Source of the DNA: Patescibacteria group bacterium
GTDB taxonomy: Bacteria; Patescibacteriota; Minisyncoccia; GCA-002772825
Length of the DNA: 64,000 nt
Direction of reading: 5' to 3'
Assembly (NCBI GenBank): GCA_024654625.1
Contig: JANLHB010000005.1
Location: forward strand, 7,191 to 71,190
The notes under the pieces are model-generated. The model saw only the letters and a program-made list of their open reading frames with translations, did not search any database and was not told the origin of the DNA. This document shows, one piece after another, positions 286 through 61,495 of this stretch. The position numbers and the translations under genes were made by a program. The stretch's first letter is position 1. Each line of letters begins with the position of its first letter.

Positions 286-830
286 GCGACTTCCTTAATG
301 TCTCAAGAATTGAGAGAGGGAAGATAGATTATGAATTTACCAAGTTTGACCTTGGTAAGCTCGTCGACGAACTCTTCGAAGAGTTTAGTCTTAAGATGAA
401 GGAGGAAGGGAAGACGGATCCTAAACTCTACTTTGATACCGAGGTGAAAGGAGAAGTCGTGATAAACGCCGACGAAGGGAAGATCAAGCAAGTCCTCTCC
501 AACCTGATAGATAATTCTATAAAATACACACCTGTCCACCCGAACGGGCCGTCCGGTTTCGTGAAGATTATTTTTACTTTACCTAAAGATAAAGATGTCG
601 CCCTTGTGACTATTAAAGACTCCGGCGCTGGCATGAGCCAAGAAACTATGGGGAGGCTTTTTGATAAGTTCTCTCGGGCAGACAACGCCTCTAAGTTTAA
701 CACTGCCGGTTCCGGCCTCGGCCTCTATGTGGCCAAAGAGTTTATCTCCAAGCACAACGGCCGCCTCTGGGCGGAGAGTGCCGGCGAGGGGAAGGGTAGC
801 ACATTCTTCGTGGAGTTGCCGAAGGGGTAA
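286..830 (+). pseudogene. 5'-truncated sensor histidine kinase fragment, copy 1 of 6 (end of HisKA plus a complete HATPase_c domain); it starts 3 nt after the argS stop and has no H-box
   Basis: Frame 3 translates GDFLNVSRIERGKIDYEF...IDNSIKYT...DSGAGMSQE...GSGLGLYVAKEFISKHNGRLWAESAGEGKGSTFFVELPKG*. The phospho-acceptor His region and the sensor part are absent. Confidence 0.75.
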
Positions 831-840
831 AAAATAAAAA

Positions 841-3459: not shown

Positions 3460-3489
3460 GATTTTTATTGGAATTATAATTTAATATAT

Positions 3490-4035
3490 TTGTTTATGGA
3501 GAAATCAAATTTTTTTGAAAAACGTATTGAAAGAATGCATAATGCCATAGAAATGGTTCCCACCAAAATTGAAGATATTGATCTTATTGCATCTTGGGAA
3601 TCAAAAGAACCAAATATAATATCTTGGACTAAAGAAAAACATGAATCTATAATAAATAATCCGCAATTCTTACACCTTCTAATTAGTAAGAAAGGTGATA
3701 ATATTGTTCCTGTTGGGTACTCTATTTTGGAAAAGGATTCGCCGGATGAATTGTCTCTAGAGTTTATACGTCTCGTTATATGTGATGAATACAAGAATAA
3801 GGGTTATGGAGTCCTAGCTTTTGAAAATATTTGGGAATTAGCTTTTGATAAATTAAAATATTCTAGAGTTTGGCATGATGTATTTATTGAAAATGAAAAG
3901 GCTATTAATCTTTACGAGAAACTTGGTTATAAAAAATTTAAAACTAGCATTGATTTAACATCCGGTAGAGAGTTGATTTTTTACGAAATGTCTAGCGATG
4001 ATTATTTTTCTAGAGAGAAAGATAATAATTCTTAA
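3490..4035 (+). CDS. GNAT-family N-acetyltransferase
   Basis: Acetyl-CoA motif A-like RLVICDEYKNKGYG and motif B-like NEKAINLYEKLGY. The length is 181 aa. Confidence 0.65.
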   Translation: MFMEKSNFFEKRIERMHNAIEMVPTKIEDIDLIASWESKEPNIISWTKEKHESIINNPQFLHLLISKKGDNIVPVGYSILEKDSPDELSLEFIRLVICDEYKNKGYGVLAFENIWELAFDKLKYSRVWHDVFIENEKAINLYEKLGYKKFKTSIDLTSGRELIFYEMSSDDYFSREKDNNS

Positions 4036-4156
4036 GATATATATTGTGCATAATATCAATATTACGTGGGCCACATTCAATAAGTAATTGCAACTATTAA
4101 TACATAGTGTTATATTTTAATTATTATTAACAGGGCAGAAAATTAAGTAAATTTTT

Positions 4157-6712
4157 ATGGAAAAGCCACCTGATATGCCTAATATCCCCAAAAACTTAAA
4201 CGAAGCGGAAAAAAAAGTTGAAGAAAAAGAAAGATATAATCCTTTTGAAAAAGAAAAATACTGGCAAGATTTCTGGGAAAAGGAAGGTATCTATAAATTT
4301 GATCCTGAGCAACCGGGCCCTCTTTATACTGTAGATACTCCGCCACCAACAATCTCCGGGTCATTGCACCTTGGGCATATTTTTTCTTATACTCAAGCGG
4401 AGGTAATCTCGCGGTTTAAAAGAATGCAAGGGAATAATGTTCGTTATTCTTTTGGTTTTGATAATAATGGTTTGCCAACAGAAAGGTTGGTGGAAAAGGA
4501 ACTTGGGATAAGAGGCGCTAATATGGATTTAGAAGATTTCACAAAAAGCTGCCTTGATATTACGAATAAATATAAACACCTTTATGAAGATCTATGGAAA
4601 TCAATAGGTCTTAGTGTAGACTGGCGACTAGAATATTCCAGTATTTCGCCGGAAGTTCAAAAGAAATCCCAGTCCACTTTTAAGGAGTTATATGAGAGAG
4701 GGGTTATTTATAAAAAAAATGCCCCGGCTCTTTATTGCACAGAGTGTCAGACTTCATTTGCTCAAGCTGAAAAAGAAGATAAAGAAAAAGAAGCTGTTTT
4801 TTATGATTTATCATTTAAGACTGAAGATGATCAGGAATTGATCGTCGCAACAACTCGCCCTGAATTACTGCCCGCATGCAGTGCTGTTTTTGTTAATCCG
4901 GACGATATTAGATTTAAAAACTTAATCGGTAAGAAAGTTATCACTCCCTTGGGAGATGGGGTTGAAATAATGGCTGATGAGAAAGTTGAAAAAGATAAAG
5001 GCTCCGGGGCGGTGATGTGCTGCACCTATGGTGATGAAACAGATATCTATTGGACAAAAAAATATAATTTGAATGAAAAAATCATATTAAACAGATATGG
5101 AAAATTTGAAGATGTAGATGAATTGCCTGACTTGAAAGGGAGGAGAGTAAATGAAGCTAGGAAAATTATCGTTGAAAAATTAAAGTCTGACGGGTTTATA
5201 AAAAAAGAAGAACAGATCAAGCATAATGTTGATGTTCATGAGAGATGCGGTACCCTGGTGGAATTTTTACCGACTACTCAGTGGTTTATGAAAGTACTCG
5301 ATATGAAAGAACGCCTCTTGGATGCGGGAACTCAAATAAAGTGGCATCCTTCATATATGAAGACAAGGTATGAAGATTGGATTAATGGTCTAAAGTGGGA
5401 TTGGTGTATTTCAAGAGAAAGATTTTACGGAATACCAATCCCTGTATTTAGCTGCGATAATTGTGAGAACGTTTTAATCCCAGAGGAAGATCAATTCCCG
5501 ATTGACCCCAAAAAAGAGAAAAATATTCATAATTGTACTGCTTGCGGTGAAGGTAAAATGCTCCCGGAGAAAAATGTCTTGGATACATGGTTTACCTCGT
5601 CTTTATCGCCAGACATAAATAATGACAATCCATTAAATGGCGGATTGAATGGCAAGTTATATCCAATGTCGGTGAGGCCTCAAGCTCACGATATAATTAG
5701 AACATGGGCTGTGTATTCTATCTTGATGGGCTTGTATAAGCATAATGAGATTCCGTGGAGAGATTTAATGATCTCCGGACATATTTTGGTGCAGGAGGGA
5801 GAAAAGATTAGTAAGAAGACCGGTGGAGGAAAATATAAGCCGGAAGAATTAATTGCGACACATTCAGCGGATGCTGTCAGGTATGCGATGTGTGGCGCTT
5901 CGTTAGGCAGAGATTCATATTTTGACGAAAAGGAAGTGAAGAAGGGTAAAAAATTAGTCACTAAAATCTATAATGCCGGCAAGCTGGTGCTTAGTAAACT
6001 GGAAGGATTTGATCCTAAAGTAGAAATAAAAGAAGATGAGCTGGAGGCAATTGACAGGTGGATATTAGACAGATCATTTGAGACGGCAAGTAAGATGTCT
6101 GAATCTTTTGAAAATTATGAATTCAGCCAAGCGCGCCAGATTTTTGAAGACTTTTTTTGGAAAGATTTTTGTGATAATTATTTGGAGATTGTAAAAAGGA
6201 GGCTGGCAATAAAGCCGGACGATAATAAAGAGAAAATGTCAGCGCAATTCACGTCTTACAATTGTTTTCTTAGTGTTATGAAGATGGCTTCTCCTTTTAT
6301 CCCTCATATAACAGAAGAAATGTTCCACGCTCAAACAGTAAAGAAAGAAGATAATGGAGTTGTAAAAGAATCTGTTAGCTCGGAAAGTGGTGGTGGTTAT
6401 TTTTCCAATAATGAAAATATTAAAAGTATACATAGTACTCAGTGGCCATCAACATCACTTGAGTATTCTAATCATGAAAATAATGAAAATGCCAATTTAG
6501 CCTTAGATGTTATCTCAAAAATAAGAAGATTTAAGACTGATAATAAAATAAAATTTGGTACACAAATTACTTTGTTAAAAATAAGATGTCGAGAAGAACA
6601 AAAAAATAAATTAAACGGTTTTTTAGATGATATTACTTCTTTAGCAAAGGCAAATAGTGTTGAAATCGAAATAACAAGTGACGAAGAACTGATTGTAGAG
6701 ATTAGAGTTTAA
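4157..6712 (+). CDS. class Ia aminoacyl-tRNA synthetase (Leu/Ile/Val family), divergent copy with KISKK in place of the canonical KMSKS
   Basis: HIGH region SGSLHLGHIFSY...RFKRMQGNNV...GFDNNGLPTE; WDWCISRERFYGIPIP; DTWFTSS; GEKISKKTGG. The length is 851 aa. It has its own TTGCAA-17-TATATT promoter at about 4098-4126. Confidence 0.6.
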   Translation: MEKPPDMPNIPKNLNEAEKKVEEKERYNPFEKEKYWQDFWEKEGIYKFDPEQPGPLYTVDTPPPTISGSLHLGHIFSYTQAEVISRFKRMQGNNVRYSFGFDNNGLPTERLVEKELGIRGANMDLEDFTKSCLDITNKYKHLYEDLWKSIGLSVDWRLEYSSISPEVQKKSQSTFKELYERGVIYKKNAPALYCTECQTSFAQAEKEDKEKEAVFYDLSFKTEDDQELIVATTRPELLPACSAVFVNPDDIRFKNLIGKKVITPLGDGVEIMADEKVEKDKGSGAVMCCTYGDETDIYWTKKYNLNEKIILNRYGKFEDVDELPDLKGRRVNEARKIIVEKLKSDGFIKKEEQIKHNVDVHERCGTLVEFLPTTQWFMKVLDMKERLLDAGTQIKWHPSYMKTRYEDWINGLKWDWCISRERFYGIPIPVFSCDNCENVLIPEEDQFPIDPKKEKNIHNCTACGEGKMLPEKNVLDTWFTSSLSPDINNDNPLNGGLNGKLYPMSVRPQAHDIIRTWAVYSILMGLYKHNEIPWRDLMISGHILVQEGEKISKKTGGGKYKPEELIATHSADAVRYAMCGASLGRDSYFDEKEVKKGKKLVTKIYNAGKLVLSKLEGFDPKVEIKEDELEAIDRWILDRSFETASKMSESFENYEFSQARQIFEDFFWKDFCDNYLEIVKRRLAIKPDDNKEKMSAQFTSYNCFLSVMKMASPFIPHITEEMFHAQTVKKEDNGVVKESVSSESGGGYFSNNENIKSIHSTQWPSTSLEYSNHENNENANLALDVISKIRRFKTDNKIKFGTQITLLKIRCREEQKNKLNGFLDDITSLAKANSVEIEITSDEELIVEIRV

Positions 6713-6722
6713 TTTATTTAGA

Positions 6723-6978
6723 CTGCCCTCGTGACTATTAAAGACTCCGGCGCTGGCATGAGCCAAGAGACGTTGGATAAAATCTTCGAGAAATTCAACC
6801 GAGCTAAAGATGCCTCCAAGTTCAACACCGAAGGCTCCGGCCTCGGCCTCTACGTGGCTAAAGAGTTCATCGCCAAGCACAACGGCAAGTTGTGGGCGGA
6901 GTCAGCGAGCGTCCCGCCGTGGCGGGATAAAAAGGGAAAGGTAGCACATTCTTCGTGGAGTTGCCGAGGGAGTAGGGG
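6723..6978 (+). pseudogene. histidine-kinase 3' fragment, copy 2 (HATPase_c tail, frameshifted by a ~25-bp insertion that contains the palindrome cccgccgtggcggg)
   Basis: Translation: VTIKDSGAGMSQETLDKIFEKFNRAKDASKFNTEGSGLGLYVAKEFIAKHNGKLWAESA, then the insertion, then ggtagcacattcttcgtggagttgccgaggg. A 38-bp stretch is identical to copy 1. The rest diverges mainly at synonymous sites. Confidence 0.75.
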
Positions 6979-6980
6979 GG

Positions 6981-7469
6981 ATGATAAATATGTTTTATTT
7001 TATAAAAATTATAAATATTTTAAGAAAAATATATTGGTTTATATTCAGGCCTACCACAATAGGGGTCAGGCTTCTAAATATATACAATAATGAAGTTTTA
7101 CTTGTAAAACATACTTATTCTAGTAGCTGGTATTTACCCGGAGGAGGTGCTAAAAATGGAATAGATATTATAGACTCGCTTAAGAGAGAAATTAAAGAAG
7201 AACTCAATATAGATCTTAACGAAGGTCAATTGAGTAGTGCCGATCTGTTTGGAGTTTATGATAATTTCCAGGAATATAAAAACGATTATATCTTTCTGTT
7301 TATCTTAGATAATTTAAAATTAAATTTAACTAAAGCAAAAAATATTGAAATAGAAGAGGCTGGATATTTCAATATTAATAATCTCCCTGGTAGCATATCT
7401 GCCGGTACAAAAAGAAGAATAAATGAGTTTTTATCAAGAAAAGATAAAGTAATAATAAGTAAGTGGTAG
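6981..7469 (+). CDS. NUDIX hydrolase
   Basis: Nudix box LPGGGAKNGIDIIDSLKREIKEELNI. The start follows the gaggg/gggggg stretch at the end of the fragment, which can act as a Shine-Dalgarno sequence. Confidence 0.6.
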   Translation: MINMFYFIKIINILRKIYWFIFRPTTIGVRLLNIYNNEVLLVKHTYSSSWYLPGGGAKNGIDIIDSLKREIKEELNIDLNEGQLSSADLFGVYDNFQEYKNDYIFLFILDNLKLNLTKAKNIEIEEAGYFNINNLPGSISAGTKRRINEFLSRKDKVIISKW

Positions 7470-8749
7470 AGAAAGAAAATAAAATAAAGGCATTAACTCA
7501 ATACAGAGGATTTACTGTTCTTAAGTCTCTGGAGGCAGCTAGTGAAAGAATAGAAATATTAAAAGATATATTGGGAATTAGTGATAATCTAGAATTATTG
7601 AATATTGCAAAAAACGATCCAGAAAAGATACTTTCAAATCTCGGTAATTTATACGACGCCATAGGACCTCGGTCTATGGGGATCAATCCGACCCCTGTAT
7701 GTAATAGACAGTGTACTTTCTGTTCTAGTAGGCAAAGAAATAAGATAAATATAGAAGATAATATTGAAATAACGGAGGATAAATTAAGGAAAGTTTTTGA
7801 AGATTTTATAAGCATGAAAGGGGGAGGGTGTGTGCTGGTTGGTGGAGGAGAGGCATTATTAGCCTGCAAAGGCAAACTTAATGAAGTTATTAATGATTAT
7901 GATTTATATTATGGATTCAATACAAATGGTGTGAATTTGGATAAATTTACGCATGAAAAATTATTAGAAAAAACAAAATGGGTATCACTCAGTTTAATTG
8001 GACACAATAAAGATACATATAATTCTACAGCTGGATTAGATTCTTCAAGTGGTCAGTTTGATGTATTAAATGATAATCTTAAAAAATATATAGAAATAGC
8101 TGATGATTTAAATAGGGAAGGTAAAAGTCATCCCTATATATCAGCAAAAATATTGATATGTAGAGAGAATTATTTATATTCCGGAGAAATATATAATTAT
8201 GCAAAATATTTAGGATTCAAAGATATTTCCCTGAGATGCGTAAACAATTTTGAAATAGAAGAAGAATATAGAAAGAGAAAAATTATTCCTCAAGATATAG
8301 AGCTAACTAAGAAGGAGAAAGAGCAGATAAAAAGTATATTAACCAAAGAAACCGATTTATCAGAAGAGATAATATTTAATATATTGGGTTTACGGGATAA
8401 AATTAAAAATGATACGGTGGTTATAAACCCTACGCTATGTTGGAATGTAGTATTAGGTTTAATAATAAATTTAGATACAAACGGAGAAGTTTTTCTATGT
8501 AACCCAAGGATAGGAATGGAAAGTTTTAGTATTGGAAACATTAATTCAATGAGTCTAAAAAGTCTTTGGAGTGGTTCTATCCATGTTGATGTTGTTAAAA
8601 AAACTTATAAAACATTTAATAAGGGCGCTTGTGACTTAAGTAAATGTCGACACTTTCGTGTAGATCAAGTTATAGAGCAGTTTTTAGAAGGAAAGATATC
8701 ATTAAAAGATAGAAGTTTCGGTGATAAGCAAATGAGTTTTTTCCCTTAG
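7463..8749 (+). CDS. radical SAM protein with a C-terminal SPASM/twitch-like Cys-rich domain and a ~75-aa N-terminal extension
   Basis: CNRQCTFC (CxxxCxxC). C-terminal motifs: NLDTNGEVFLCNP and GACDLSKCRHF. Confidence 0.6.
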   Translation: MVEKENKIKALTQYRGFTVLKSLEAASERIEILKDILGISDNLELLNIAKNDPEKILSNLGNLYDAIGPRSMGINPTPVCNRQCTFCSSRQRNKINIEDNIEITEDKLRKVFEDFISMKGGGCVLVGGGEALLACKGKLNEVINDYDLYYGFNTNGVNLDKFTHEKLLEKTKWVSLSLIGHNKDTYNSTAGLDSSSGQFDVLNDNLKKYIEIADDLNREGKSHPYISAKILICRENYLYSGEIYNYAKYLGFKDISLRCVNNFEIEEEYRKRKIIPQDIELTKKEKEQIKSILTKETDLSEEIIFNILGLRDKIKNDTVVINPTLCWNVVLGLIINLDTNGEVFLCNPRIGMESFSIGNINSMSLKSLWSGSIHVDVVKKTYKTFNKGACDLSKCRHFRVDQVIEQFLEGKISLKDRSFGDKQMSFFP

Positions 8750-8753
8750 AGTT

Positions 8754-8988
8754 TTTTGGAGAAATTCAACCGCGCAGACAACGCCTCCAAGTTCAATACT
8801 GCCGGTTCCGGCCTCGGCCTCTATGTGGCTAAAGCCCCAACACTATCGCTTATCGCGAAAGTGAGGGGTAAAAATTCATCGCCAAGCACAACGGCAAGTT
8901 GTGGGCGGAGTCTGCCGGCGAGGGCAAAGGTAGCACATTCTTCGTGGAGTTGCCGTTAATCTCGACTGGTGTTGAGAAGAAGGGGTAA
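8754..8988 (+). pseudogene. histidine-kinase 3' fragment, copy 3 (disrupted by two short insertions)
   Basis: EKFNRADNASKFNTAGSGLGLYVAK [~40-bp insertion] FIAKHNGKLWAESAGEGKGSTFFVELP [~24-bp insertion] aaggggtaa. Confidence 0.75.
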
Positions 8989-9001
8989 AATGAGGTATAA
9001 T
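8972..9001 (+). promoter_or_regulatory. sigma70-like promoter TTGAGA-18-TATAAT, 7 nt upstream of the ATG at 9009 (leaderless-type arrangement)
   Basis: ttgaga at 8972-8977, which lies inside the second insertion of copy 3. tataat at 8996-9001, followed by ctctata and the ATG. Confidence 0.4.
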
Positions 9002-9008
9002 CTCTATA

Positions 9009-9893
9009 ATGAAATTTGAATTTAGAATCTCAAAATGGGCGAATTTTTATTATTTTGTCCAGAATCTCTCAGAATGGCATTTTAGTAATCGTAAAGATTA
9101 TAATATTTTTTGGAGAGAAAAGCTCAAATCTTTCTCAAAAGATGAGGAATCTGTATTAGAAAAATTTAAAGAGATTAGATTTAAATACCCTAAGACAAAA
9201 AGTTGTTTTGAAAGGGCTTTTTTTCTGTCAGAAAGCCCTTTTGAAGAATTGAATAAATGTTTATCTGAAAGAGAATATTTAACAATGAAGGAAATTTTTA
9301 ATGTTTTAGAGGATAAGTTTGATGCTCTGTATAAAGAAGATGAAGTTCTTCTTAAAAAATGGAAAGATGCATTGAGTGAAGAATCTAATGATAAAAACCT
9401 TATAATAAAAATATTGTCTATATTAAAAATCTTATACAAAAGCAATATTGATACACAAGAAGTTTCTGTCACTCTTTTATTTTCTACTCCTGAGCACATA
9501 GGAGGTGGTGCCAATATAGACCGCAATATGATTAGTCTAGAAGTTTCCCGTTACCCGATAGAAAATATAAATCAAGCCATAGGTATTATTTGGCATGAAA
9601 TAATACATTTGATGTTTCAAGAACGGTATTTTTCATTATTATTGGATTATTTTAAGGAAGATGAGCAGGTAGCTGACCTTGTTAATGAGTTAACCGCTGG
9701 ATCATTATTTCCAAATGGAATTTTAGGTATACGAATATTAAAGAATAAACCATCTACTCAATTATTGCCACAAGTTACCAAAGGGCAAACTATTATGATT
9801 ATTAATTTGGCAAAGGAGTATGTTGAAAAAGGCAGTCAACTGGACAGGAATTTTATCAATAGGTTGATAGATATTATTAAGGAGAAGAATTAA
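9009..9893 (+). CDS. hypothetical protein with an HExxH motif; putative zinc metallopeptidase
   Basis: WHEIIHLMF. There is no other recognisable domain. A convergent terminator hairpin at 9905-9938 follows it. Confidence 0.35.
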   Translation: MKFEFRISKWANFYYFVQNLSEWHFSNRKDYNIFWREKLKSFSKDEESVLEKFKEIRFKYPKTKSCFERAFFLSESPFEELNKCLSEREYLTMKEIFNVLEDKFDALYKEDEVLLKKWKDALSEESNDKNLIIKILSILKILYKSNIDTQEVSVTLLFSTPEHIGGGANIDRNMISLEVSRYPIENINQAIGIIWHEIIHLMFQERYFSLLLDYFKEDEQVADLVNELTAGSLFPNGILGIRILKNKPSTQLLPQVTKGQTIMIINLAKEYVEKGSQLDRNFINRLIDIIKEKN

Positions 9894-9944
9894 AAAAATG
9901 TCCGTCTGAGAAAATAAATTCTCAAACGGACATTTTGGAGGGGG

Positions 9945-10127
9945 TTAACCGCTTATGTCTCCCCACCCTGGGTCGCCGCCGCCGAGGTCGTCCCAATTAC
10001 CCCATTGGTCATCCCAGCCCTTAACGTCTTGTGCTTCTTGCTCTCGACATTCGCGCGGTGTGGCGTTTATGTCGAGGAGACTCCTTGTCCTTTCAGAAGC
10101 TCCCTTGATTGCGTTTGAGCCTGTCAT
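9945..10127 (-). CDS. 60-aa Trp/Asp/Gly-rich small protein translationally coupled to the upstream radical SAM-SPASM gene; candidate RiPP precursor peptide
   Basis: MTGSNAIKGASERTRSLLDINATPRECREQEAQDVKGWDDQWGNWDDLGGGDPGWGDISG. On the minus strand a strong SD, gaaaggagataaaaATG, overlaps the last codons of the radical SAM gene. The region is a local GC-rich patch. Confidence 0.45.
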   Translation of the reverse strand: MTGSNAIKGASERTRSLLDINATPRECREQEAQDVKGWDDQWGNWDDLGGGDPGWGDISG

Positions 10128-10129
10128 TT

Positions 10130-11266
10130 TTATCTCCTTTCTATCCGCGGGGGCGGATGGTTTATTTTCCTCACCTTATCTTCAAGGTAAGTAAAAATTT
10201 CTTTTCTAGTCTCGCAGTAGTAGTATTTTCCTTTTACACCTCCTTTCCTATGCATTGTGCAACCGTTATGACAAGCTTTTTCCCATTTGCACATAATGCA
10301 ATCCTGATGCAGATCGTTCACACCTTTTGCATAATTCATTCTTTCTGATCCATTTAGTATATCTAAGAGCGAAGATCTCGAGATATCACCTAATAGGAAA
10401 TTAGGTTGACCTGATGACCTGTCGCATGGGTAAATTCTCCCATCGTATTCAAGACAGAAATATCCCGAGCATGAGCCGTTAAATGAACATCCAGAACTCT
10501 TTTTCCCGAAGATGACCGCGATAAAGTTTTCAATCTCGCGAAGAGCAAGATTAGGATCGTCTTTATCGAGCCAAAGATTGATCTGTTCTTTGAGAAATCT
10601 CGTCAGTTGCTTGTTTGTCAGACCATGGCTATTTGATTTTAAGCCATTTTGTTCCAGGTCAAGATATACGTTCGTGCCCCACTTCTTGATGCCAAGCTCA
10701 TCCGCAAAAAAATGAAAATTTTCTTTTGTGGATGAAAGACTGGAGGATGTAATAGTCTGAATAAATCCCGGTTTTATGCCGTGCTTACGGATGATCTCTA
10801 GCCCTCTCATTACTGAAGAAAATGTCCCTTTGTCGTTGTTGTTTTTTCTGAATCGGTCATGGCTTTCTTTGTTACCATCTAAGCTAATGCCCACTCGAAA
10901 CTGGTATTTTTTGAAGAGCTCAGCCCACTCGTCGTTGATAAGAGTAGCATTGGTCTGTATAAAGTTTTGAACTTTTTGACCGTTTCTGGTGTTAGACGAT
11001 TGAATACGGACGGCTTCTTCGAAGAAGGGGATACCTGCAAGCAATGGTTCTCCACCGTGCCAGATGAAAGAAAGATTTTCGTTAAAGAGAAGTATGTATT
11101 CGCTTAAAAACTTCTCTAACAGTTCAAAATCCATGATACTGTGAGTAGACTGATCTTTGTCGTTATAGAAGCAGTAGCCACAGCGAAGGTTGCAGTAATC
11201 TCCCGCTGGTTTTATGATTGGGACCATCGTTTTAAGTGGGGAAGTAAGTAACACCCGGTTTTTCAT
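10130..11266 (-). CDS. radical SAM enzyme with a SPASM domain (anSME / RiPP-maturase type)
   Basis: CNLRCGYC near the N-terminus. SPASM motifs: CSGYFCLEYDGRIYPCD and CIMCKWEKACHNGC. A strong SD, aaggaggataaaATG. Confidence 0.75.
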   Translation of the reverse strand: MKNRVLLTSPLKTMVPIIKPAGDYCNLRCGYCFYNDKDQSTHSIMDFELLEKFLSEYILLFNENLSFIWHGGEPLLAGIPFFEEAVRIQSSNTRNGQKVQNFIQTNATLINDEWAELFKKYQFRVGISLDGNKESHDRFRKNNNDKGTFSSVMRGLEIIRKHGIKPGFIQTITSSSLSSTKENFHFFADELGIKKWGTNVYLDLEQNGLKSNSHGLTNKQLTRFLKEQINLWLDKDDPNLALREIENFIAVIFGKKSSGCSFNGSCSGYFCLEYDGRIYPCDRSSGQPNFLLGDISRSSLLDILNGSERMNYAKGVNDLHQDCIMCKWEKACHNGCTMHRKGGVKGKYYYCETRKEIFTYLEDKVRKINHPPPRIERR

Positions 11267-11320
11267 TTTATCCTCCTTGCGTTGTATAGATAAAGGTTAT
11301 TTTTATTTTTTAAAGATCAT

Positions 11321-11350
11321 TTGACAAAGTACAGTTCTAATATGTATAAT
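11321..11350 (+). promoter_or_regulatory. sigma70-like promoter TTGACA-18-TATAAT that reads into HK-fragment copy 4 and the MntA/HepT pair
   Basis: ttgaca at 11321-11326 and tataat at 11345-11350. It lies in a divergent intergenic region shared with the minus-strand radical SAM gene. Confidence 0.5.
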
Positions 11351-11433
11351 GCATATATTATGATTGAAAGTCAACATCAACAAGTTGTAAGCGCCCTAGT
11401 TGTTTTTAATAAGAAATTGCTTCTTTTATAAAA

Positions 11434-11610
11434 GCAAAATCTTCGAGAAGTTCAACCGCACTAAAGACGCCTCCAAGTTCAACACCGAAGGCTCCGGCCT
11501 CGGCCTCTATGTGGCTAAAGAGTTCATCAATAAGCACAACGGCCGCCTCTGGGCGGAAAGCCCGGGGGAGGGCAAAGGGAGTACATTCTTCGTGGAATTG
11601 CCGAGGGGGG
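11434..11610 (+). pseudogene. histidine-kinase 3' fragment, copy 4
   Basis: IFEKFNRTKDASKFNTEGSGLGLYVAKEFINKHNGRLWAESPGEGKGSTFFVELPRG. Its end, ccgaggggggtggtagtATG, supplies an SD for the next gene. Confidence 0.75.
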
Positions 11611-11617
11611 TGGTAGT

Positions 11618-12088
11618 ATGGCGTTAGGAGGTATTTCCTGGTATAATGTTTCTATGAATTTATCCAGAGAGCAGAAAATTAAATTAGCTGATTTTGCCGA
11701 AGCAAATGGTATAAAGTTTATAGTTTTGTTCGGCTCGCAGTCTAGAAAAACTTCTAAAAAAGATAGTGATTTTGATATTGCTGTATTAACAACGCCGGAG
11801 AAGAGCATTTTTGAGAGTTTGGAAAATTATAATAATCTTTTGTTTGGCCTATCTGCTATCTTAGAAATACCGGATTATAAGTTTGATCTAACTGATCTGA
11901 ACAATGCTAATATATTGTTGAGATATGAGATTGTTTCGAGCGGGCAGTTATTGTTTGGAGATGAGATCGATTATCTTGAATTTAAATCTTTTGCGACTAG
12001 GGAGTATATTGACGCTAAGAGATTGTTTGATCTTGAAGATTTTTTAATCAAGAAAAAGCAACGATTACTTTCAGAAGTAGTTCTTTAA
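11618..12088 (+). CDS. nucleotidyltransferase, MntA-type antitoxin
   Basis: LFGSQSRKTSKKDSDFDIAVL (GS...D-x-D). It is paired with the downstream HEPN gene. Confidence 0.65.
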   Translation: MALGGISWYNVSMNLSREQKIKLADFAEANGIKFIVLFGSQSRKTSKKDSDFDIAVLTTPEKSIFESLENYNNLLFGLSAILEIPDYKFDLTDLNNANILLRYEIVSSGQLLFGDEIDYLEFKSFATREYIDAKRLFDLEDFLIKKKQRLLSEVVL

Positions 12089-12093
12089 TTACT

Positions 12094-12561
12094 ATGATAA
12101 AAGAAGATTTTGTAAAAAGGAAAATATCATTGATCCAAGATGAACTCAGTAATCTTGAGCGTCTTTCGCATTATTCTTTTGATGAGATAGCAAGCGACCC
12201 CATAAAGCAGGGAGCATTGGAACGCTTTCTTGAAAGGGTTATTAATAGAGCAATAGATATCAATAATCATATTATCGCAGAGCTTGCAGGTCTTGATACT
12301 GCTACGCCGAAGGATTACACAGATAGTTTCTTGGAGTTGGCGAAGTTGGGTATCTATACTAAAGAGTTTGCGGAAAGTATTTCTAAAAGTGCTGGAACGA
12401 GAAATGTGCTTGTGCATGAATATGATAAAATTGACCAGACTAGGATTTATAATTCAGTCGCGGATTGCTTGCGTGATTATCATAAATATTGCGGATACAT
12501 TTTAGAGTTTCTTGAAAAACAACCAAAGGAGAAATACAACCAAAGGAGAAATAATTTGTGA
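12094..12561 (+). CDS. HepT/DUF86 HEPN-domain toxin
   Basis: R-x4-HEY motif RNVLVHEYD. Confidence 0.65.
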   Translation: MIKEDFVKRKISLIQDELSNLERLSHYSFDEIASDPIKQGALERFLERVINRAIDINNHIIAELAGLDTATPKDYTDSFLELAKLGIYTKEFAESISKSAGTRNVLVHEYDKIDQTRIYNSVADCLRDYHKYCGYILEFLEKQPKEKYNQRRNNL

Positions 12562-12576
12562 GGAGCTTGCTGGTGT

Positions 12577-12668
12577 CACGCCGTGGCGGGATAAAAAGAG
12601 GAAGGCTCGCCCGGATGAACCCGTTCGGACGGGGTAGCACATTCTTCGTGGAGTTGCCGAGGGGGTAG
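12577..12668 (+). pseudogene. histidine-kinase 3' fragment, copy 5 (only the last ~35 nt of the CDS plus the same cgccgtggcgggataaaaag element as copy 2 and a second small hairpin)
   Basis: cacgccgtggcgggataaaaag...cccgttcggacgggg tagcacattcttcgtggagttgccgagggggtag. Confidence 0.7.
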
Positions 12669-12677
12669 GGGATAGTT

Positions 12678-13085
12678 TTACTTTTTGATGAGATGATAAA
12701 TTTCCTTGATATATTCTTTTAGATTGTTATAGCTCAATACCGAAGATACCTCATTTGTCGGTACCCATTTAATGTCATCCCCTTTAAATTCCGGCCTTAA
12801 GAGGGTGTCGTCCTCAGATTGCACTAGAAACATTTTTATTGAAATATTATTTCCATTTGGATGTGTGTAATTTATGTCCGGTAAATCGCATAAAATTTCT
12901 ACTAATAGCCCTGTCTCCTCTTTAACTTCTCTAATCATTGCGTTAGTCGGATCCTCACCATCCTCAATGTGTCCCTTGGGAAAGGACCAATCTTTTTGTT
13001 TCCCACTATAAAGCAGGGCAATTTTACTTTGATCATCCTTACTCAAAATAATAGCGCCGGCTTTCTGGATTAATTTAATAGTCAT
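12678..13085 (-). CDS. NUDIX hydrolase
   Basis: Nudix box GHIEDGEDPTNAMIREVKEETGL. Confidence 0.7.
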   Translation of the reverse strand: MTIKLIQKAGAIILSKDDQSKIALLYSGKQKDWSFPKGHIEDGEDPTNAMIREVKEETGLLVEILCDLPDINYTHPNGNNISIKMFLVQSEDDTLLRPEFKGDDIKWVPTNEVSSVLSYNNLKEYIKEIYHLIKK

Positions 13086-13135
13086 AGTTAGTATTACACT
13101 ATATCACTTATATACCTTTTAGGTTGCAGGTACCC

Positions 13136-13831
13136 CTATTGGGTGATTTTTTTTGCAATTAAAATTAGCCTTGGACTGGTCAAAGAATATTCACTAAAAT
13201 CATAGTTGCCGATAACACGCTCAACAGAAAAACCGGATTTTTCCATCCATTGACTCCAAACAGGATAAGGTGGGTATGGAATTCTAAGATTAGCTTTTTT
13301 ATCGATAAGCTCTAATTTTTTCGCATCAAATGCAAATGGCGAGTTAGGATTTTTCTCAAGGTAAGAAACGATCCTAAATAAATTATCCGTATCAATCAGA
13401 ATTTTGCCTCCGGGTTTAATGTTGCGACCTATTGAAGAGACTGCCTTTTCAATGTTGATGTTGGCTAAGTCGGAGAAAAACCAGTATGCCTTGTCATATT
13501 TCTTTCTTAACTTTAGTTGTTCAATATTGGCTTTATAATAATTCGGCGTTCTTTTGCCGGATTTTTTAGATTCATCTTTTGCTTTACTAAGTAGGTATTT
13601 AGAAAAATCAACACCGTCTACTAAATAACCTCTTTCACTTAGGGCTTTTGTGTGGCGACCTTGCCCGCAAGCAATATCAAAGATGGTATCATTTTTTTTA
13701 AGACTAAGAGCTTTAATTAAAAAGTCAGAATCTTTCTTTATACTTGCTGAAGTTAGAAATGAATCATGATCCTTTAAATAATCACCCTTTTCTCCGTAGT
13801 ATTTAGATAAAAATTCTTTAGATTTTGACAT
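13136..13831 (-). CDS. class I SAM-dependent methyltransferase
   Basis: Motif I IFDIACGQGRHT. The length is 231 aa. Confidence 0.65.
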   Translation of the reverse strand: MSKSKEFLSKYYGEKGDYLKDHDSFLTSASIKKDSDFLIKALSLKKNDTIFDIACGQGRHTKALSERGYLVDGVDFSKYLLSKAKDESKKSGKRTPNYYKANIEQLKLRKKYDKAYWFFSDLANINIEKAVSSIGRNIKPGGKILIDTDNLFRIVSYLEKNPNSPFAFDAKKLELIDKKANLRIPYPPYPVWSQWMEKSGFSVERVIGNYDFSEYSLTSPRLILIAKKITQ

Positions 13832-13904
13832 GGTGTATTCTTATATGTATTAATATACTGGATAATATATCAAATAGAAGGTAAAGATGATAGTATGTAT
13901 AATG

Positions 13905-13938
13905 TGACCCATTCTTCGTGGAGTTGTCGTAGGGGAGA
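13905..13938 (+). repeat. histidine-kinase 3' fragment, copy 6 (shortest remnant: tgacccattcttcgtggagttgtcgtagggg)
   Basis: It matches the terminal ~30 nt of the other copies. It is preceded by tatgtataatg, the same -10 context that lies upstream of copy 4. Confidence 0.65.
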
Positions 13939-13977
13939 GAGTAGATTTGATAATAGTTTTTATGGTATAATGTTCTT

Positions 13978-28010: not shown

Positions 28011-28093
28011 GAGGGTATCGAGGGTCATGGTCGGTAGAAAATAAAAACACATCCACCTTTCTGGTCCTCTGAATTAATAAGCAAATTATTTTC

Positions 28094-28132
28094 AAACTTA
28101 TTTAACGACCGCACAAAAAGTTTGAAAGTTTT
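28094..28132 (+). repeat. direct repeat 1 (39 bp) flanking the 28193-28771 gene; it reads ...FKLI* in frame, i.e. it looks like a displaced gene 3' end
   Basis: aaacttatttaacgaccgcacaaaaagtttgaaagtttt here, against aaacttatttaacgaccgcacaaagagttagaagatttt at 28759-28797. The first 24 nt are identical. Confidence 0.7.
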
Positions 28133-28192
28133 CGTGGATGTTATATAATATACATGTGCAGGTAGTTAATATTAAGTTGTTGAATAATTAAT

Positions 28193-28771
28193 ATGAAAGA
28201 ACAGAAAAAGTGTAAAGAGGATAATTATGTAAAAGTGGCAATGATTGTTTTGAAAATCATCGGAACTGCCGGCTTGGTAAGCATGATCTTACTTGCGCCA
28301 AACGCCTTACAAGCTTTAGATGTTTTTTACGGTAAGGACAAAAAGAAATATTATAAAAAGGGGTACCTAGACAGAAGTATAGATAGATTGAAGAGAGGGG
28401 GGTATATTGAATTCAAAAAAAGAAACGGAAGAGTCTTTGTTAGTCTGACTGAGAAAGGAAAAGAAAAATTATTAAAGTATCAACTAGGAGAGCTTAAAAT
28501 TAAAAAATCAAAAAGATGGGATAGAAAATGGCGTATTATAACTTTTGACATAAGAGAATCAAGAAGGGGAGTAAGAAATACGCTAAGGAGAGAATTAGTA
28601 AACCTTGGTTTTATCAAGCTTCAAAATAGTGTCTGGGTTTATCCTTATGACTGCGAAGAAGTTGTCATTATGCTTAAATCTTATTTAAGGGTAGGAAAAG
28701 ATATTCTATATGTCGTTGCGGAGAGAATAGAAAATGATAAATGGTTGAAACAAGAATTTAAACTTATTTAA
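28193..28771 (+). CDS. hypothetical membrane-anchored protein with a winged-helix-like region and a C-terminal motif that resembles the Cas2/VapD fold (QNSVW)
   Basis: N-terminal TM helix. GYLDRSIDRLKRGGYIEF...LTEKGKEKL. RIITFDIRESRRGVRNTLRRELVNLGFIKLQNSVWVYPYD. Its last 13 nt form direct repeat 2. Confidence 0.3.
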   Translation: MKEQKKCKEDNYVKVAMIVLKIIGTAGLVSMILLAPNALQALDVFYGKDKKKYYKKGYLDRSIDRLKRGGYIEFKKRNGRVFVSLTEKGKEKLLKYQLGELKIKKSKRWDRKWRIITFDIRESRRGVRNTLRRELVNLGFIKLQNSVWVYPYDCEEVVIMLKSYLRVGKDILYVVAERIENDKWLKQEFKLI

Positions 28772-28797
28772 CGACCGCACAAAGAGTTAGAAGATTT
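28759..28797 (+). repeat. direct repeat 2 (39 bp), partner of the repeat at 28094-28132
   Basis: See the repeat at 28094-28132. There are 4 mismatches in 39 bp. Confidence 0.7.
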
Positions 28798-28997
28798 TAT
28801 TAAAAATTAAAAAAGCGTTTTTTGGTTTTTTGAACGCCATAGCGGATAAAACTTAGGGTGAGGAGTATGATAGGCGATATGTGAAATAATTTTATTAAGA
28901 GTGCATTCCAATCATCCCAGCCTCCCTTTTTGTGATTTTTATGTTAATATGAAATTATATTAGATGTTTATCTGGTATAAGATTTCTGTTAATTACT

Positions 28998-30350
28998 ATG
29001 GATAATAAAAAAAGTCAAGAAAAAATTGTAACTCGTTTTGCGCCGAGTCCGACAGGGCCGGTGCATTTGGGAAGCGCCAGGACAGCGTTGTTTAATTATC
29101 TTTTTTCAAAACAAAATAAAGGGAAAATGATTCTTAGGATTGAAGATACCGACCCAGTGAGATCCAAGCTGGAATATGAAAAAGACATAATAGACGGTCT
29201 TGATTGGCTTGGAATAAAGTATGATGAGTTTTATCGTCAGTCTGAGAGAAAGGAAGTTTATAAAAGATATCTTAAGAAAATGGTAGAAGAGGGGACGGCT
29301 TACATTTCTAAAGAGGAGCCAAAAGAAGAAGGTCAAAGGAGCGAGGTGATAAGATTTAAGAATCCTAATATAAAAATAAAATTCAATGATTTGATAAGAG
29401 GCGAGATAGAATTTGACACAACAGAGCTCGGGGATTTTGTTGTGGCAAGAGACATGGAAAGCCCTCTTTATCATCTGGCGGTCGCTGTCGATGATTTTGA
29501 AATGGGTGTGACGCATATAATCCGCGGAGATGACGGTATCTCTAATACGCCTCGTCAGATCCTTATCCAAGGCGCCATAGGCGCTATGAGGCCTATATAT
29601 GCGCATATACCGCTTATATTGGGCCCTGATAAGTCTAAATTGTCAAAACGGCACGGTGCAGTTTCCGTGAATAAATATAGAGAAGAGGGGTATATCGCGG
29701 AAGCAATCGTAAATTTCCTCGCTTTATTGGGGTGGTCTCCTCAGGGGAAGGATGGAACAAATGAAGAGGTCTTTTACATGGATGAGCTTATTAAAAAATT
29801 TGATATAAATAAAGTTCAGAAAAGCGGAGCGGTGTTTAACATTGATAAATTAAATTGGATAAATAAGCAGTATATAAGAAATGCCCCGTTAGATAATCTG
29901 GCGGATGTTTTATTTGACTTCTTGTCTGATGATTTAAAAAAAGAAGCTGAAGAAAAGCCTGATTTATGGAAAAGGGTTACAGCGCTTGAAATTGAAAGGA
30001 TAGAGAAATTTAGCGATATTAAAGATTCGGTGGATTATTTTTTTCAAGCGCCCGATTACGAAAAAGAAATGCTTAACTGGAAAGACGAAAAGGATATAAA
30101 TAAAACAAAATCTCATTTAGAATATATTGTTAAAATATTGTGCGACATTAAAGATAGTGATTTTAGTAAAGAGTCTATAAAGGATCTTATTTGGGGTTAC
30201 GCCGATAAAGAAGGAAGGGGTAATGTCTTATGGCCTTTTCGTGTTGCTTTGTCCGGCAGGCAAAAATCACCTGACCCGTTCATCTTAAGTGAAGTGTTGG
30301 GAAAAGAAGAAACTGTTAAACGTCTTAAAAATGCTATTGGGAAAATATAA
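28998..30350 (+). CDS. gltX: glutamyl-tRNA synthetase
   Basis: RFAPSPTGPVHLGSARTALFNY (HIGH) and KLSKRHGA (KMSKS). Confidence 0.85.
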   Translation: MDNKKSQEKIVTRFAPSPTGPVHLGSARTALFNYLFSKQNKGKMILRIEDTDPVRSKLEYEKDIIDGLDWLGIKYDEFYRQSERKEVYKRYLKKMVEEGTAYISKEEPKEEGQRSEVIRFKNPNIKIKFNDLIRGEIEFDTTELGDFVVARDMESPLYHLAVAVDDFEMGVTHIIRGDDGISNTPRQILIQGAIGAMRPIYAHIPLILGPDKSKLSKRHGAVSVNKYREEGYIAEAIVNFLALLGWSPQGKDGTNEEVFYMDELIKKFDINKVQKSGAVFNIDKLNWINKQYIRNAPLDNLADVLFDFLSDDLKKEAEEKPDLWKRVTALEIERIEKFSDIKDSVDYFFQAPDYEKEMLNWKDEKDINKTKSHLEYIVKILCDIKDSDFSKESIKDLIWGYADKEGRGNVLWPFRVALSGRQKSPDPFILSEVLGKEETVKRLKNAIGKI

Positions 30351-52855: not shown

Positions 52856-52860
52856 TAGAG

Positions 52861-52892
52861 ATAATAATATCCGAAAACCGCCTGTTAGTCAA
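52861..52892 (-). promoter_or_regulatory. sigma70-like promoter TTGACT-17-TATTAT that ends 8 nt before the proS ATG (leaderless-type)
   Basis: Minus-strand read: ttgactaacaggcggttttcggatattattatctctaATG. Confidence 0.45.
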
Positions 52893-52936
52893 AAATAAAT
52901 AAAACGCCTCACTCCTTCGAGAAGGAGTGAGGCGTT
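52891..52936 (-). terminator. rho-independent terminator (15-bp stem plus T-run on the minus strand)
   Basis: aacgcctcactccttcgagaaggagtgaggcgtt, followed on the minus strand by ttatttattttt. Confidence 0.7.
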
Positions 52937-52957
52937 TAAACAAGTATACATTTTGAT

Positions 52958-53031
52958 GCGGTCGTTGCTTTTTATATACATCATCAATTCACAAGATTTT
53001 TTATCCTTTTGAGGATTAGTTATAAATAAAT
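52958..53031. repeat. conserved ~75-bp intergenic element (cggtcgt...tttatatacat...aagat...ttttgaggattaRttataaataa). A second copy lies at 56096-56173.
   Basis: Blocks of 7, 11, 5 and 23 nt are shared in the same order. Both copies lie upstream, on the minus strand, of proS and frr respectively. Confidence 0.5.
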
Positions 53032-55042: not shown

Positions 55043-55399
55043 TTATCCTAAAGATGAAGTAATCTTTTGAAAAATTAACGTTAACTCGTGTGATTCTTGC
55101 CATAATTTTTTTATCTCCTCTTTATTTTCTGATATGCACTTTTCAATCATTCTTAGCCAATATTTAGTCTCCTGTGACTCTTTCTTGCAAATAAAAATTT
55201 TATTTCTAAAATCTTTCCTAGAACTGGCATTATTAGCTTCCATGTAATTTGCGCCCACGCTTGTACTGGAACGAATAAGTTGACTAATAACCGGCTTCGT
55301 AACTATATCCTGTTTTACATTCTTACAAAATCCAATAATTTCCTCACCAAATTTTGAAGTTCTCTCTTCCAAATCATATTTATTTGAAGATTGCATCAT
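55043..55399 (-). CDS. four-helix-bundle protein (the family often encoded in 23S rRNA intervening sequences)
   Basis: A 118-aa protein with the TIGR02436-like pattern KF..E....L..Q...SS.S...N..EA. Confidence 0.5.
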   Translation of the reverse strand: MMQSSNKYDLEERTSKFGEEIIGFCKNVKQDIVTKPVISQLIRSSTSVGANYMEANNASSRKDFRNKIFICKKESQETKYWLRMIEKCISENKEEIKKLWQESHELTLIFQKITSSLG

Positions 55400-55996: not shown

Positions 55997-56240
55997 ATTG
56001 AAAACTATTATATATTATTTCTTTAGATAAAGAAAACATCTAATAAATTAACAAAATTTTATGTCACCTTTAAAACTATAAGTATATTTTTTCTACGGTC
56101 GTAGATTTTATATACATTGGTCTAATAAACTAATAAGATCTTCAATCGTTTTGAGGATTAATTATAAATAATAAAAAATAGCCCTGCTCCGACGGATCGG
56201 AACAGGGCTAGAAGTTTGAAGTCTGCGACTACGGGGTGCA

Positions 56241-56597
56241 CTAATCAATCAGTTCACCCAACTTGTAGTGTCCCTCGTACGTCGTGGCCGTCACGACGTA
56301 CTTGGCAAGTTCTGGGTCAAAAACCGCGACAGCCCTGTAGAGGTCGGCCGTCGCACGACCGATGGCAATCGCCACAGGGATTCCTACAGTGGCAGGGCGA
56401 TAATCTATTTTGACTCTTAAAATCTTCCCTCCTCTGATTATCCCGTCCAGAATCATCTCGCCCAGGCACGTGACTACGTCACGGATGATGTTGTCCACTT
56501 TCTTTTCCTCAAAACGTCCAACCACAACATTGAGGACGCTACTGTAATAGTTATGATTGATACGGCAACTTCCTCTCCTTCTTCTAACAATCATCAC
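56241..56597 (-). CDS. hypothetical protein (a GC-rich island in an AT-rich context)
   Basis: ORF only. It is followed by a hairpin terminator at 56171-56203. Confidence 0.3.
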   Translation of the reverse strand: MMIVRRRRGSCRINHNYYSSVLNVVVGRFEEKKVDNIIRDVVTCLGEMILDGIIRGGKILRVKIDYRPATVGIPVAIAIGRATADLYRAVAVFDPELAKYVVTATTYEGHYKLGELID

Positions 56598-57033
56598 GCT
56601 ACCCCCTTTTTTTGTTTAAAAGTTTTCAGATTATCAAAAAACAATTATCATCACTAAATCTAGTGTAACTTATAACACAACGGCTGAATTTAGTAAAGAG
56701 TAGAAATATCTACACCACACCAGCTATATTCCTAATGTATACAAAATGAGACGACCGTCTCAAAATGTATACATTGCTGGATTCTTAAATCCATTACATC
56801 GCTGCATTGATTTTCATAATAAAATTGGTAGTATTAACTTATTCATAGAGAGGACTGGCCACCTTTTCTATTTCTCCGAAAGGGGACGACATGAATTAGG
56901 CTGCCGCAAGAGTCAGGGATAGGAGATTGAGTAGCGACGAGCGAAAAACCAGTGTGCAATAACATTGTACGCAGCACTATCATCCTGATGTAATTCTTGC
57001 GGCTTTTTTTATTTAAAAATGCTCTTTCGAATT

Positions 57034-61180: not shown

Positions 61181-61256
61181 GGGCCGGTAGCTCATCTGGT
61201 AGAGCGCCTCATTTGCACTGAGGAGGTGGCGGGTTCGAGTCCTGTCCGGTCCACCA
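61181..61256 (+). tRNA. tRNA-Ala (anticodon UGC) with the G3:U70 identity pair and an encoded CCA
   Basis: gggccggtagctcatctggtagagcgcctcatttgcactgaggaggtggcgggttcgagtcctgtccggtccacca folds as a cloverleaf. A TTGCAT-16-TAGAAT promoter lies at 61139-61166 and a terminator hairpin at 61268-61290. Confidence 0.85.
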
Positions 61257-61407
61257 ATTTAAAACATTAGCACCTGAAAAGGTGCTTTTTGTTTTTTGGT
61301 GGACCCGAAGCGAGCCAAATGTTTGGCTCGTGTCAGGACGAGAAAGGATTTTCGTTATGAACGAGCCGGAGGTGAGAGAATCGAAAATCACCTGGATATG
61401 TAATAGC

Positions 61408-61427
61408 CGAGTCCTGTCCGGTCCACA
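61408..61427 (+). repeat. direct repeat of the last ~18-20 nt of tRNA-Ala (an att-like duplicate of the 3' end) 152 bp downstream of the tRNA
   Basis: cgagtcctgtccggtcca at 61408-61425 is identical to 61236-61253. Confidence 0.7.
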
Positions 61428-61495
61428 ACGTCAAAACCCCCTCTTCACAGACGGGGGTTTTGTTTTTCCATTATTTGTGTATAATTATTATTAAT

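Follow-up and report, generated by a model that had tools for sequence, protein, structure and literature searches.

The Escherichia coli regulator PaaX has an operator, TGATTC-N27-GAATCA, that is a palindrome of 39 base pairs (bp) with half-sites far apart, and PaaX represses its own Px promoter by steric hindrance of RNA polymerase (review, PMC9493321). Here we describe a 64,000-nucleotide (nt) stretch of DNA from a Patescibacteria group bacterium (assembly GCA_024654625.1, contig JANLHB010000005.1, positions 7,191 to 71,190; hereafter the window), in which a gene for a PaaX-like protein of 192 amino acids (aa) lies between murG and gltX (28193-28771, plus strand) and is bracketed by two copies of a palindromic element. 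With moderate confidence, and from comparative sequence analysis, we propose that the two copies are paired cognate PaaX-type operators of the protein encoded between them, and that the upstream site serves autorepression.

By analogy, the geometry and logic of the site in the window match those of the PaaX operator. Both are palindromes (about 38 bp here, 39 bp for PaaX) with distant half-sites, and both overlap the regulator's own promoter, an overlap judged here in silico. As in PaaX, a winged helix near the N-terminus precedes a Cas2-like middle domain (PF20803), the dimerisation domain of PaaX, and PaaX (8a39) is the protein's best structural match. Unlike PaaX (~305-316 aa), the protein lacks the C-terminal effector domain that binds phenylacetyl-CoA and carries an N-terminal hydrophobic helix, and no paa catabolic genes were found among its neighbours, which are murG, gltX, an M23 peptidase gene, and others. 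The sites differ from the PaaX operator in their invariant CGRYCG centre, in that two copies bracket the gene, and in that many paralogs have arms of their own.

Two further comparisons are instructive. The C-terminal domain has the beta-alpha-beta-beta-alpha-beta unit of Cas2 and VapD, including the conserved Asp of an FDI motif in strand one; unlike Cas2, it falls below the hidden Markov model cutoffs, is fused to a winged helix, and is accompanied neither by cas1 in the gene map nor by an interspaced repeat (CRISPR) array in the window. The lac (O1/O2) and gal (OE/OI) systems combine a site at the promoter with a second copy hundreds of bp downstream, in or past coding sequence. The arrangement here is similar in having one site at the promoter and another of the same type hundreds of bp downstream, and different in that the second lies past the regulator's own gene (spacing across the family 600-794 bp, median 666) with no detectable helical phasing.

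A repeated palindrome at the promoter and stop codon of one gene

A repeat search of the window identified 42-nt direct repeats at 28091-28132 and 28757-28798 that are 88% identical and spaced by 666 nt. Their shared identical core is the 24-mer AAACTTATTTAACGACCGCACAAA, which is present at just two positions of the 64 kb (28094 and 28760) and for which 0 matches are expected by chance (100 shuffles, up to 3 mismatches allowed). An earlier note on this DNA had described the pair as 39-bp repeats sharing 35 of 39 nt, with the first 24 identical. Both counts hold, and the search for other copies that it called for, run over the window, returned only these two; its position for the downstream repeat (28759-28797) is one base off and should read 28760-28798.

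The earlier note overlooked that the upstream repeat is itself an inverted repeat, in which TTTCAAACTT (28090-28099) pairs with AAGTTTGAAA (28118-28127) around CGACCG at 28106-28111. The upstream palindromic element occupies 28090-28127 and reads TTTCAAACTTATTTAA-CGACCG-CACAAAAAGTTTGAAA, with the dyad at 28108/28109; like all elements described below, it is given without strand. The outer 10 nt of its two arms are fully complementary. The downstream copy (28756-28793, core CGACCG at 28772-28777) is a poor palindrome: its left arm is the gene's last four codons plus stop, and its right arm has diverged, leaving 8 of 16 arm positions complementary.

The coding overlap was described correctly in part. 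The downstream repeat spans the codons F-K-L-I-stop of the 192-aa open reading frame (ORF), and the E codon that had been included lies just outside it. The 15 nt of the last four codons and stop are also present in the upstream repeat, one frame of which does read IIFKLI-stop, as had been pointed out; these codons are homologous to the C-terminus of the family, F-x-L-x-stop. No remnant of a gene body was detected left of the upstream repeat, where local alignment of 28011-28093 with the gene's last 200 nt scored 16 against a shuffle mean of 15.5.

The proposal that the gene has its own promoter was confirmed: a sigma-70-type TTGAAA-16-TATAAT promoter lies at 28122-28149 on the plus strand (11/12 positions match). 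Its -35 box sits within the right arm of the upstream palindrome. A terminator scan of the window placed no terminator-like site at either repeat. Folded as RNA, the upstream repeat forms a weak structure (-8.7 kcal/mol, z -1.9), and the downstream repeat folds no better than shuffles (-2.7 kcal/mol, z -0.2) while keeping the core and outer motifs.

The encoded protein is PaaX-like and lacks the effector domain

The 192-aa protein comprises a hydrophobic helix (residues ~15-35), a winged helix with recognition helix (56-68) and wing (72-85), and a PaaX_M/Cas2-like domain (105-192). Pfam PaaX_M (PF20803, "central Cas2-like domain") matches at E 2.5e-20 and 72.8 bits versus a cutoff of 24, and matches to Pfam winged helix-turn-helix models are weak. 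The NCBIfam PaaX equivalog TIGR02277 scores 41.8 bits, far under its cutoff of 264.55, and two Cas2 models also stay under cutoff (TIGR01573, 24.2 versus 24.5 bits; PF09827, 21.4 versus 23.8 bits). The defence-system models of PADLOC gave weak Cas2 matches only. The chain stops directly after the Cas2-like domain, and the PaaX_C effector domain is absent. Searches with Pfam and NCBIfam, together with the gene map, revealed no domain of a recombinase or transposase, either in the protein or among the neighbouring genes, and the protein has no Y1_Tnp (HUH/Y1 transposase) match.

An AlphaFold2 model built on 46 homologs reached a predicted local distance difference test score above 85 for residues 56-192; residues 6-42 were not confidently placed. 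The model runs from recognition helix to beta wing and helix and then to the beta-alpha-beta-beta-alpha-beta unit, and a Foldseek search of the PDB ranks E. coli PaaX (8a39) first, with many Cas2 chains next. Pfam, the model, and Foldseek bear out the winged helix and Cas2-like fold that the earlier note had read from the letters. The region around residues 15-35 is strongly hydrophobic (best 19-aa Kyte-Doolittle mean 2.27), and 82 of the 83 family members examined reach at least 1.6. The membrane-anchored protein suggested earlier is therefore probable, with the N-terminal helix as a plausible anchor.

The paired palindrome recurs across the family

We compared 83 family loci, the window and the fetched loci L002-L084; 80 of the loci were fetched from GTDB species representatives, and all are Patescibacteria-type metagenome-assembled genomes. 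The closest ortholog (L004) encodes an 81% identical protein, with gltX next to it and the same two elements. A paralog on another contig of the same genome (P0009, locus L002) lies between dnaE and rnhB, encodes a 70% identical protein, and has a copy of a related element, with other arms, on either side. In its ortholog at the conserved dnaE-X-rnhB position (L003), the two flanking copies are identical over 35-36 nt.

This layout is widespread. When the 200 nt upstream of the start were compared with the region around and after the stop, the best ungapped match had a median score of 21.5 and reached at least 14 in 56 of 72 loci; flanks paired across different loci gave a median of 9 and reached that score in 6 of 286 cases. 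Strong palindromes were found in 37 upstream and 30 downstream windows, versus 3 of 280 control windows. Under a strict test, 54 of the 83 loci have CGRYCG-centred palindromes on both sides, and a further dozen or so have a CTATAG-centred or weaker pair. Thus, of the 83 homologous loci, 54 or more, and probably some 70, have the palindrome-gene-palindrome layout. In one sub-family (L040, L042, L045, L057, L063-L065, L067, L070, L076) the centre (A)CGCTATAGCG(T) replaces CGRYCG. This CTATAG-centred sub-family corresponds to a single protein clade, whose discriminating residues include N145D in the LQNSVW motif.

The family comprises 567 clusters at 50% identity (E<=1e-30) and 535 loci in GTDB species representatives. 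Many genomes encode from 2 to at least 6 paralogs in differing contexts, and these are divergent rather than near-identical copies. The Prokaryotic Genome Annotation Pipeline frequently labels family members "Cas2". No relatives were found among IMG/VR viral contigs, and a metagenome scan for the window-type 24-mer returned no match. Literature searches on PaaX in Patescibacteria, on Cas2-like domains with winged helices and palindromes, and on palindromic intergenic repeats in the candidate phyla radiation (CPR) retrieved nothing relevant, and the paired-palindrome architecture appears not to have been described in the searchable literature.

Element anatomy points to recognition by a symmetric protein

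Family-wide, the element is an imperfect palindrome of 18 + 18 nt around the dyad (~36-38 bp). Its RCG-RY-CGY centre is invariant. Positions 10-18 from the dyad have a symmetry of ~0.9 and an identity of ~0.9 between the paired copies at one locus, and they are wholly different among loci and paralogs. Positions 5-9 have the lowest symmetry (~0.7) and a copy identity of ~0.7. Past position 19, similarity is random, and copy identity ends at the palindrome edge. From the symmetry of the outer arms and their identity between copies, it follows that the four half-sites of a locus track one specificity. The central dinucleotide is AC, GT, or AT and is frequently flipped between the copies of a locus: the two centres have the same orientation at 27 loci and opposite orientations at 14, and 13 loci include the symmetric AT.

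The upstream copies are associated with promoters. Of the 61 upstream copies, 27 have a -10-like box that starts 18-29 nt to the right of the dyad, compared with 8 among the 63 downstream copies (Fisher p = 1.2e-4); the background rate is 8.6%. At many loci TATAAT follows right after the arm, with the start codon a few bases on, so that the upstream copy covers the -35 box and spacer.

Several features of the element concern its possible action as a folded strand. Copies of the dnaE-linked type carry their A/T tracts as direct, not inverted, repeats (GTATAC-ATTTT-core-ATTTT-GTATAC). Among arm mismatches in the palindrome copies of the 83 loci (61 upstream, 63 downstream), there is no excess of wobble-type G:T pairs on the sense strand (upstream 27 G:T versus 53 A:C, downstream 41 versus 32). 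The upstream mismatches are skewed to A:C over G:T on that strand (p = 0.005), and the downstream copies have no such bias. Rfam contains no family that matches the repeats or the 52.8-57.1 kb region of the window. Because weakly folding copies keep their motifs, the tracts are direct, G:T pairs are not in excess, and Rfam is silent, these sequence comparisons favour a symmetric protein that recognises the double-stranded sequence, rather than a hairpin function. We also considered downstream copies as terminators in general. Isolated examples occur, but neither T-tails nor stem extensions are enriched at downstream versus upstream copies, and we dropped this idea.

Within the protein, the recognition helix (56-68) is the least conserved structured segment: mean identity is 31% there and 60% in the Cas2-like domain. 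This helix also correlates best, if weakly, with the similarity of the outer arms among loci (Mantel r = 0.16, p = 0.001). Both this and the match of the CTATAG-centred class to a single clade are in keeping with co-variation of protein and site.

The gene is a derived insertion between murG and gltX

In five related genomes (L089, L087/L088, L090, L091/L092; MurG 81-88% identical), murG abuts or overlaps gltX. In blastn alignments with these empty sites, homology ends at 28009 and resumes at 29020, which delimits an insert of ~1.0 kb at 28011-29019 (no strand) that is present in the window genome and L004 and absent from the five relatives. Besides the gene and its two palindromes, the insert contains a new start and promoter region for gltX; no target-site duplication was found at it. 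Neighbor-joining trees of MurG+FtsW+GltX and of GltX alone place the empty sites as outgroups, with the window genome and L004 as sisters, and the gene is therefore a derived insertion.

The earlier note was right that the gene is inserted, the empty sites being ancestral in the tree. Its view that the repeats delimit the insertion did not hold up, the repeats lying 80 nt and ~220 nt inside the insert edges. Nor are they a scar specific to this event: the loci L002 and L003, and most of the 83, share the layout, and the comparison of related loci showed the same arrangement with the repeats as a conserved regulatory-type site, an outcome that the earlier note itself had named as one that would refute it. 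What had been taken for a stranded gene end upstream amounts to no more than the element's 18-nt left arm, which in this lineage overlaps the last four codons.

Between the window and L004, identity is 95% for GltX (aligned columns 20-390, the L004 gene being partial) and 81% for the inserted protein, which by this sequence estimate evolves about four times faster. The nearest relatives of the inserted protein are the dnaE-linked paralogs (70-75% identity), and for this reason it is best read as a duplicate of the dnaE-linked gene. Nucleotide homology between the insert and the paralog loci L002 and L003 covers the coding sequence only, with none in the flanks. The unit of site, promoter, gene, and site probably originated as a fast-evolving duplicate of this paralog and probably entered the murG-gltX junction in an ancestor shared by the window genome and L004.

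A different gene occupies the same junction in a sister genome (GCA_002772825.1, loci L085/L086). There, a gene for a 219-aa Y1 transposase resembling the transposases associated with repetitive extragenic palindromes (RAYTs) lies on the minus strand at 5147-5846 of L086, with REP-like hairpins GCAAAGGTTTAACCTTTGC, one at each end of the gene and one inside it. The murG-gltX junction may be an insertion hot spot.

Solo and cross-type sites

Elements also occur without a family gene between them. The window contains three solo elements of the type that flanks the dnaE-linked paralog P0009. The element at 52943-52980 (GTATAC...CGRYCG...RTATAC) has a 16-nt centre identical to that of the upstream copy at L002 in reverse complement; as RNA it folds no better than shuffles (-2.5 kcal/mol, z +1.1), with its motifs kept. 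A second element, at 56080-56117, lies 84 nt upstream of the start of frr (minus strand). The third, at 56736-56773, is identical to the L003 flanking copies at 35 of 38 nt and folds well as RNA (-19.2 kcal/mol, z -8.5).

The latter two elements bracket an orphan 118-aa ORF at 56241-56597 (minus strand) with a GC content of 49% versus 38% for the window. In metagenome and protein searches, this ORF matches itself only. Its NCBI name is "Csx3", which no Pfam or NCBIfam model supports, and its terminator hairpin (56179-56210) falls within the bracketed stretch. A conserved 23-nt motif, TTTTGAGGATTARTTATAAATAA, is found ~30 nt past the solo elements at 52943 and 56080, in a repeated block of ~47 nt in total (52983-53029 and 56125-56171).

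Similar cases were seen at other loci. At L077 (3597-4761), two L077-type palindromes enclose a GC-rich gene (207 aa, counted from the ATG at 3777), and palindromes of other types occur at 4511-4544 and 4586-4619, the second being of the type of L026, a paralog in the same genome. The downstream palindrome of L066 (3803-3836) is of the type of L068, from the same genome. These extra sites look like small regulons or cross-regulation. In ~70 kb of related murG loci, no palindromes of this kind were found, and in these searches the elements appear rare and specifically tied to the family.

Interpretation of the paired sites

We propose that both sites would be read by a truncated, probably membrane-tethered relative of PaaX. 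The sites have three zones, namely the invariant RCG-RY-CGY centre, a loose spacer at positions 5-9, and paralog-specific arms at positions 10-18. The arms would be contacted by the two winged helices of a dimer that the Cas2-like domain would hold together. Protein bound to the upstream site would repress its own transcription, as PaaX does at Px, by covering the -35 box in the window and the -35 box and spacer in many relatives. The downstream copy would be a second site of the same protein, most likely an auxiliary operator that acts by looping or as a roadblock; this role, drawn by analogy with lac and gal, is the weakest part of the proposal.

A number of observations weigh against paired operators. 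The evidence for them is comparative throughout, and a need for an invariant CGRYCG centre is not known for any PaaX operator. At L004, the palindrome is farther from the likely -10 box than it is in the window. The downstream copies are not associated with promoters, as the low frequency of -10-like boxes beside them indicates, and they occur with the next gene co-directional (37 loci) or convergent (27 loci); the helical phasing analysis gave no signal between the two copies. Outer-arm similarity correlates with the Cas2-like domain nearly as well (r = 0.13) as with the recognition helix, and the co-variation of helix and arms, which is not cleanly separable from phylogeny, may largely reflect shared ancestry. 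L053 has arms identical to those of L015 and L023, yet shares only 38-46% identity with them in the recognition helix. Finally, the net charge flanking the hydrophobic helix (+2.9 on the N side versus +2.4 on the C side) leaves the positive-inside rule ambiguous on topology, and if the C-terminal domains faced outward, the operator model would fail.

An alternative that we consider unlikely is that a small mobile cassette (attC, pdif, lox, or IS200/REP-like) moves or rearranges as one block, with the palindromes as its ends or as sites of crossover. Mobility would account for the insertion at murG-gltX, where the unit is present relative to five relatives, and for the 2 to at least 6 paralogs per genome in varied contexts. 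It also fits the bracketing of compositionally foreign genes by same-type palindromes (window 56080-56773, L077 3597-4761), and the Cas2-like domain keeps invariant acidic residues (D119, E122, E180, D182). The likeness to REPtrons and IS200-IS605 elements is considerable: a gene of ~0.6-0.7 kb between two cognate palindromes, paralog-specific palindrome types, occasional solos, and a genuine RAYT, complete with Y1 transposase and REP hairpins, that occupies the murG-gltX junction of L086. The gene described here, by contrast, has no HUH/Y1 domain, and its orthologs are syntenic, holding their positions at dnaE-X-rnhB (L002/L003) and X-gltX (window/L004). REPtron palindromes are dispersed in high copy; in the DNA covered here, the window type has 2 copies in 64 kb and the paralog type 3 solos in the window, with 0 in the 70 kb of related murG loci. 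With attC and pdif (XerCD) modules the locus shares single-gene units between imperfect palindromes that combine a conserved core with variable arms, but no integrase or Xer gene is linked to it, and the bounding sites have the same sequence as each other, not that of neighbours' sites. Symmetric arms around a 2-bp asymmetric centre (AC/GT), commonly flipped between copies, also recall serine-recombinase crossover sites, which are built in this way; the inconsistent orientation of the centres means that no single outcome, excision or inversion, would follow. The insert edges lie off the palindromes without a target-site duplication, no recombinase or transposase domain is at hand, the paralogs within a genome are divergent, and the family is absent from IMG/VR viral contigs.

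It is similarly doubtful that the copies are RNA or DNA hairpins serving as terminators, insulators, or mRNA-stabilising structures, kept similar by gene conversion and not read by the protein. Many copies are near-perfect palindromes of 36-46 nt, some downstream copies have extra GC-rich stem pairs and T-runs (e.g., L024, L028, L032, L036, L080-L082), the solo element at 56736 folds strongly, and the arms stay complementary while varying among loci. Against this, the downstream repeat in the window and the solo at 52943 keep the motif without folding better than shuffles, the A/T tracts of the dnaE-linked type are direct, and symmetry is lowest at positions 5-9. The missing T-tail, stem-extension, and G:T enrichments and the lack of an Rfam match count here as well, and the ordinary terminators of the window have no CGRYCG centre. 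The upstream copy lies 5' of the gene's own -10 box and so outside the gene's transcript, and copy identity stops at the palindrome edge, unlike a gene-conversion tract. The model of the earlier note, in which the arrival of new DNA restored the 3' end of the gene while its former end stayed behind upstream, is highly improbable and contradicted, at the level of sequence, by the family-wide pattern. The locus is a genuine insertion, and the upstream repeat does share 15 nt with the end of the gene; but no gene-body remnant accompanies it, the repeats are internal to the insert, the upstream repeat is itself a palindrome whose right arm is part of the promoter, and the paired element also occurs where the palindrome lies wholly after the stop codon and at conserved positions without an insertion. 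A more speculative idea, to which we give little credence, is that the CGRYCG centre is a substrate or docking point for a dimer of the Cas2-like nuclease fold, and that protein and palindrome form a new self-contained DNA-manipulating module. Such a module may direct rearrangement or mobility through hairpins or cruciforms, or may act as a membrane tether that pins loci, including the bracketed foreign genes; if so, the paralog-specific arms would stop cross-talk between modules. Mobility sites and structural hairpins are less well supported than paired operators, which we continue to favour.

Other features of the window

Histidine-kinase-like 3'-terminal fragments recur up to six times at 600-13946 (50-177 nt, 60-85% identical) and correspond to the "kinase array" with which the earlier note had compared the present locus. 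At 61181-61437, the 3' end of a tRNA-Ala (61236-61265) is repeated 172 nt downstream (61408-61437, 87% identical); repeats of this kind are typical where DNA has integrated into a tRNA gene. On the minus strand, 55043-55399 is a stand-alone gene whose product belongs to the "23S rRNA intervening sequence protein" family (PF05635, E 2e-15). An apparent, near-leaderless promoter of proS, TTGACT-17-TATTAT (region 52856-52936), ends 9 nt before the start codon and directly follows a strong terminator hairpin (52903-52936).

Implications for Patescibacteria

Patescibacteria genomes have few recognisable transcription factors, and to our knowledge gene regulation in these organisms, also known as CPR bacteria, is almost unstudied. 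For the window, the analysis turns an apparent insertion scar into a probable regulatory architecture, around a gene that is still a lineage-specific insert between otherwise overlapping housekeeping genes. It also corrects a common annotation error, many family members being named "CRISPR-associated endonuclease Cas2". With two predicted sites beside each gene, the family would supply dozens of ready-made protein-operator pairs from which a recognition code might be worked out. It could further allow small regulons to be mapped from sequence alone, and it could serve to test how a possibly membrane-anchored repressor finds its DNA.

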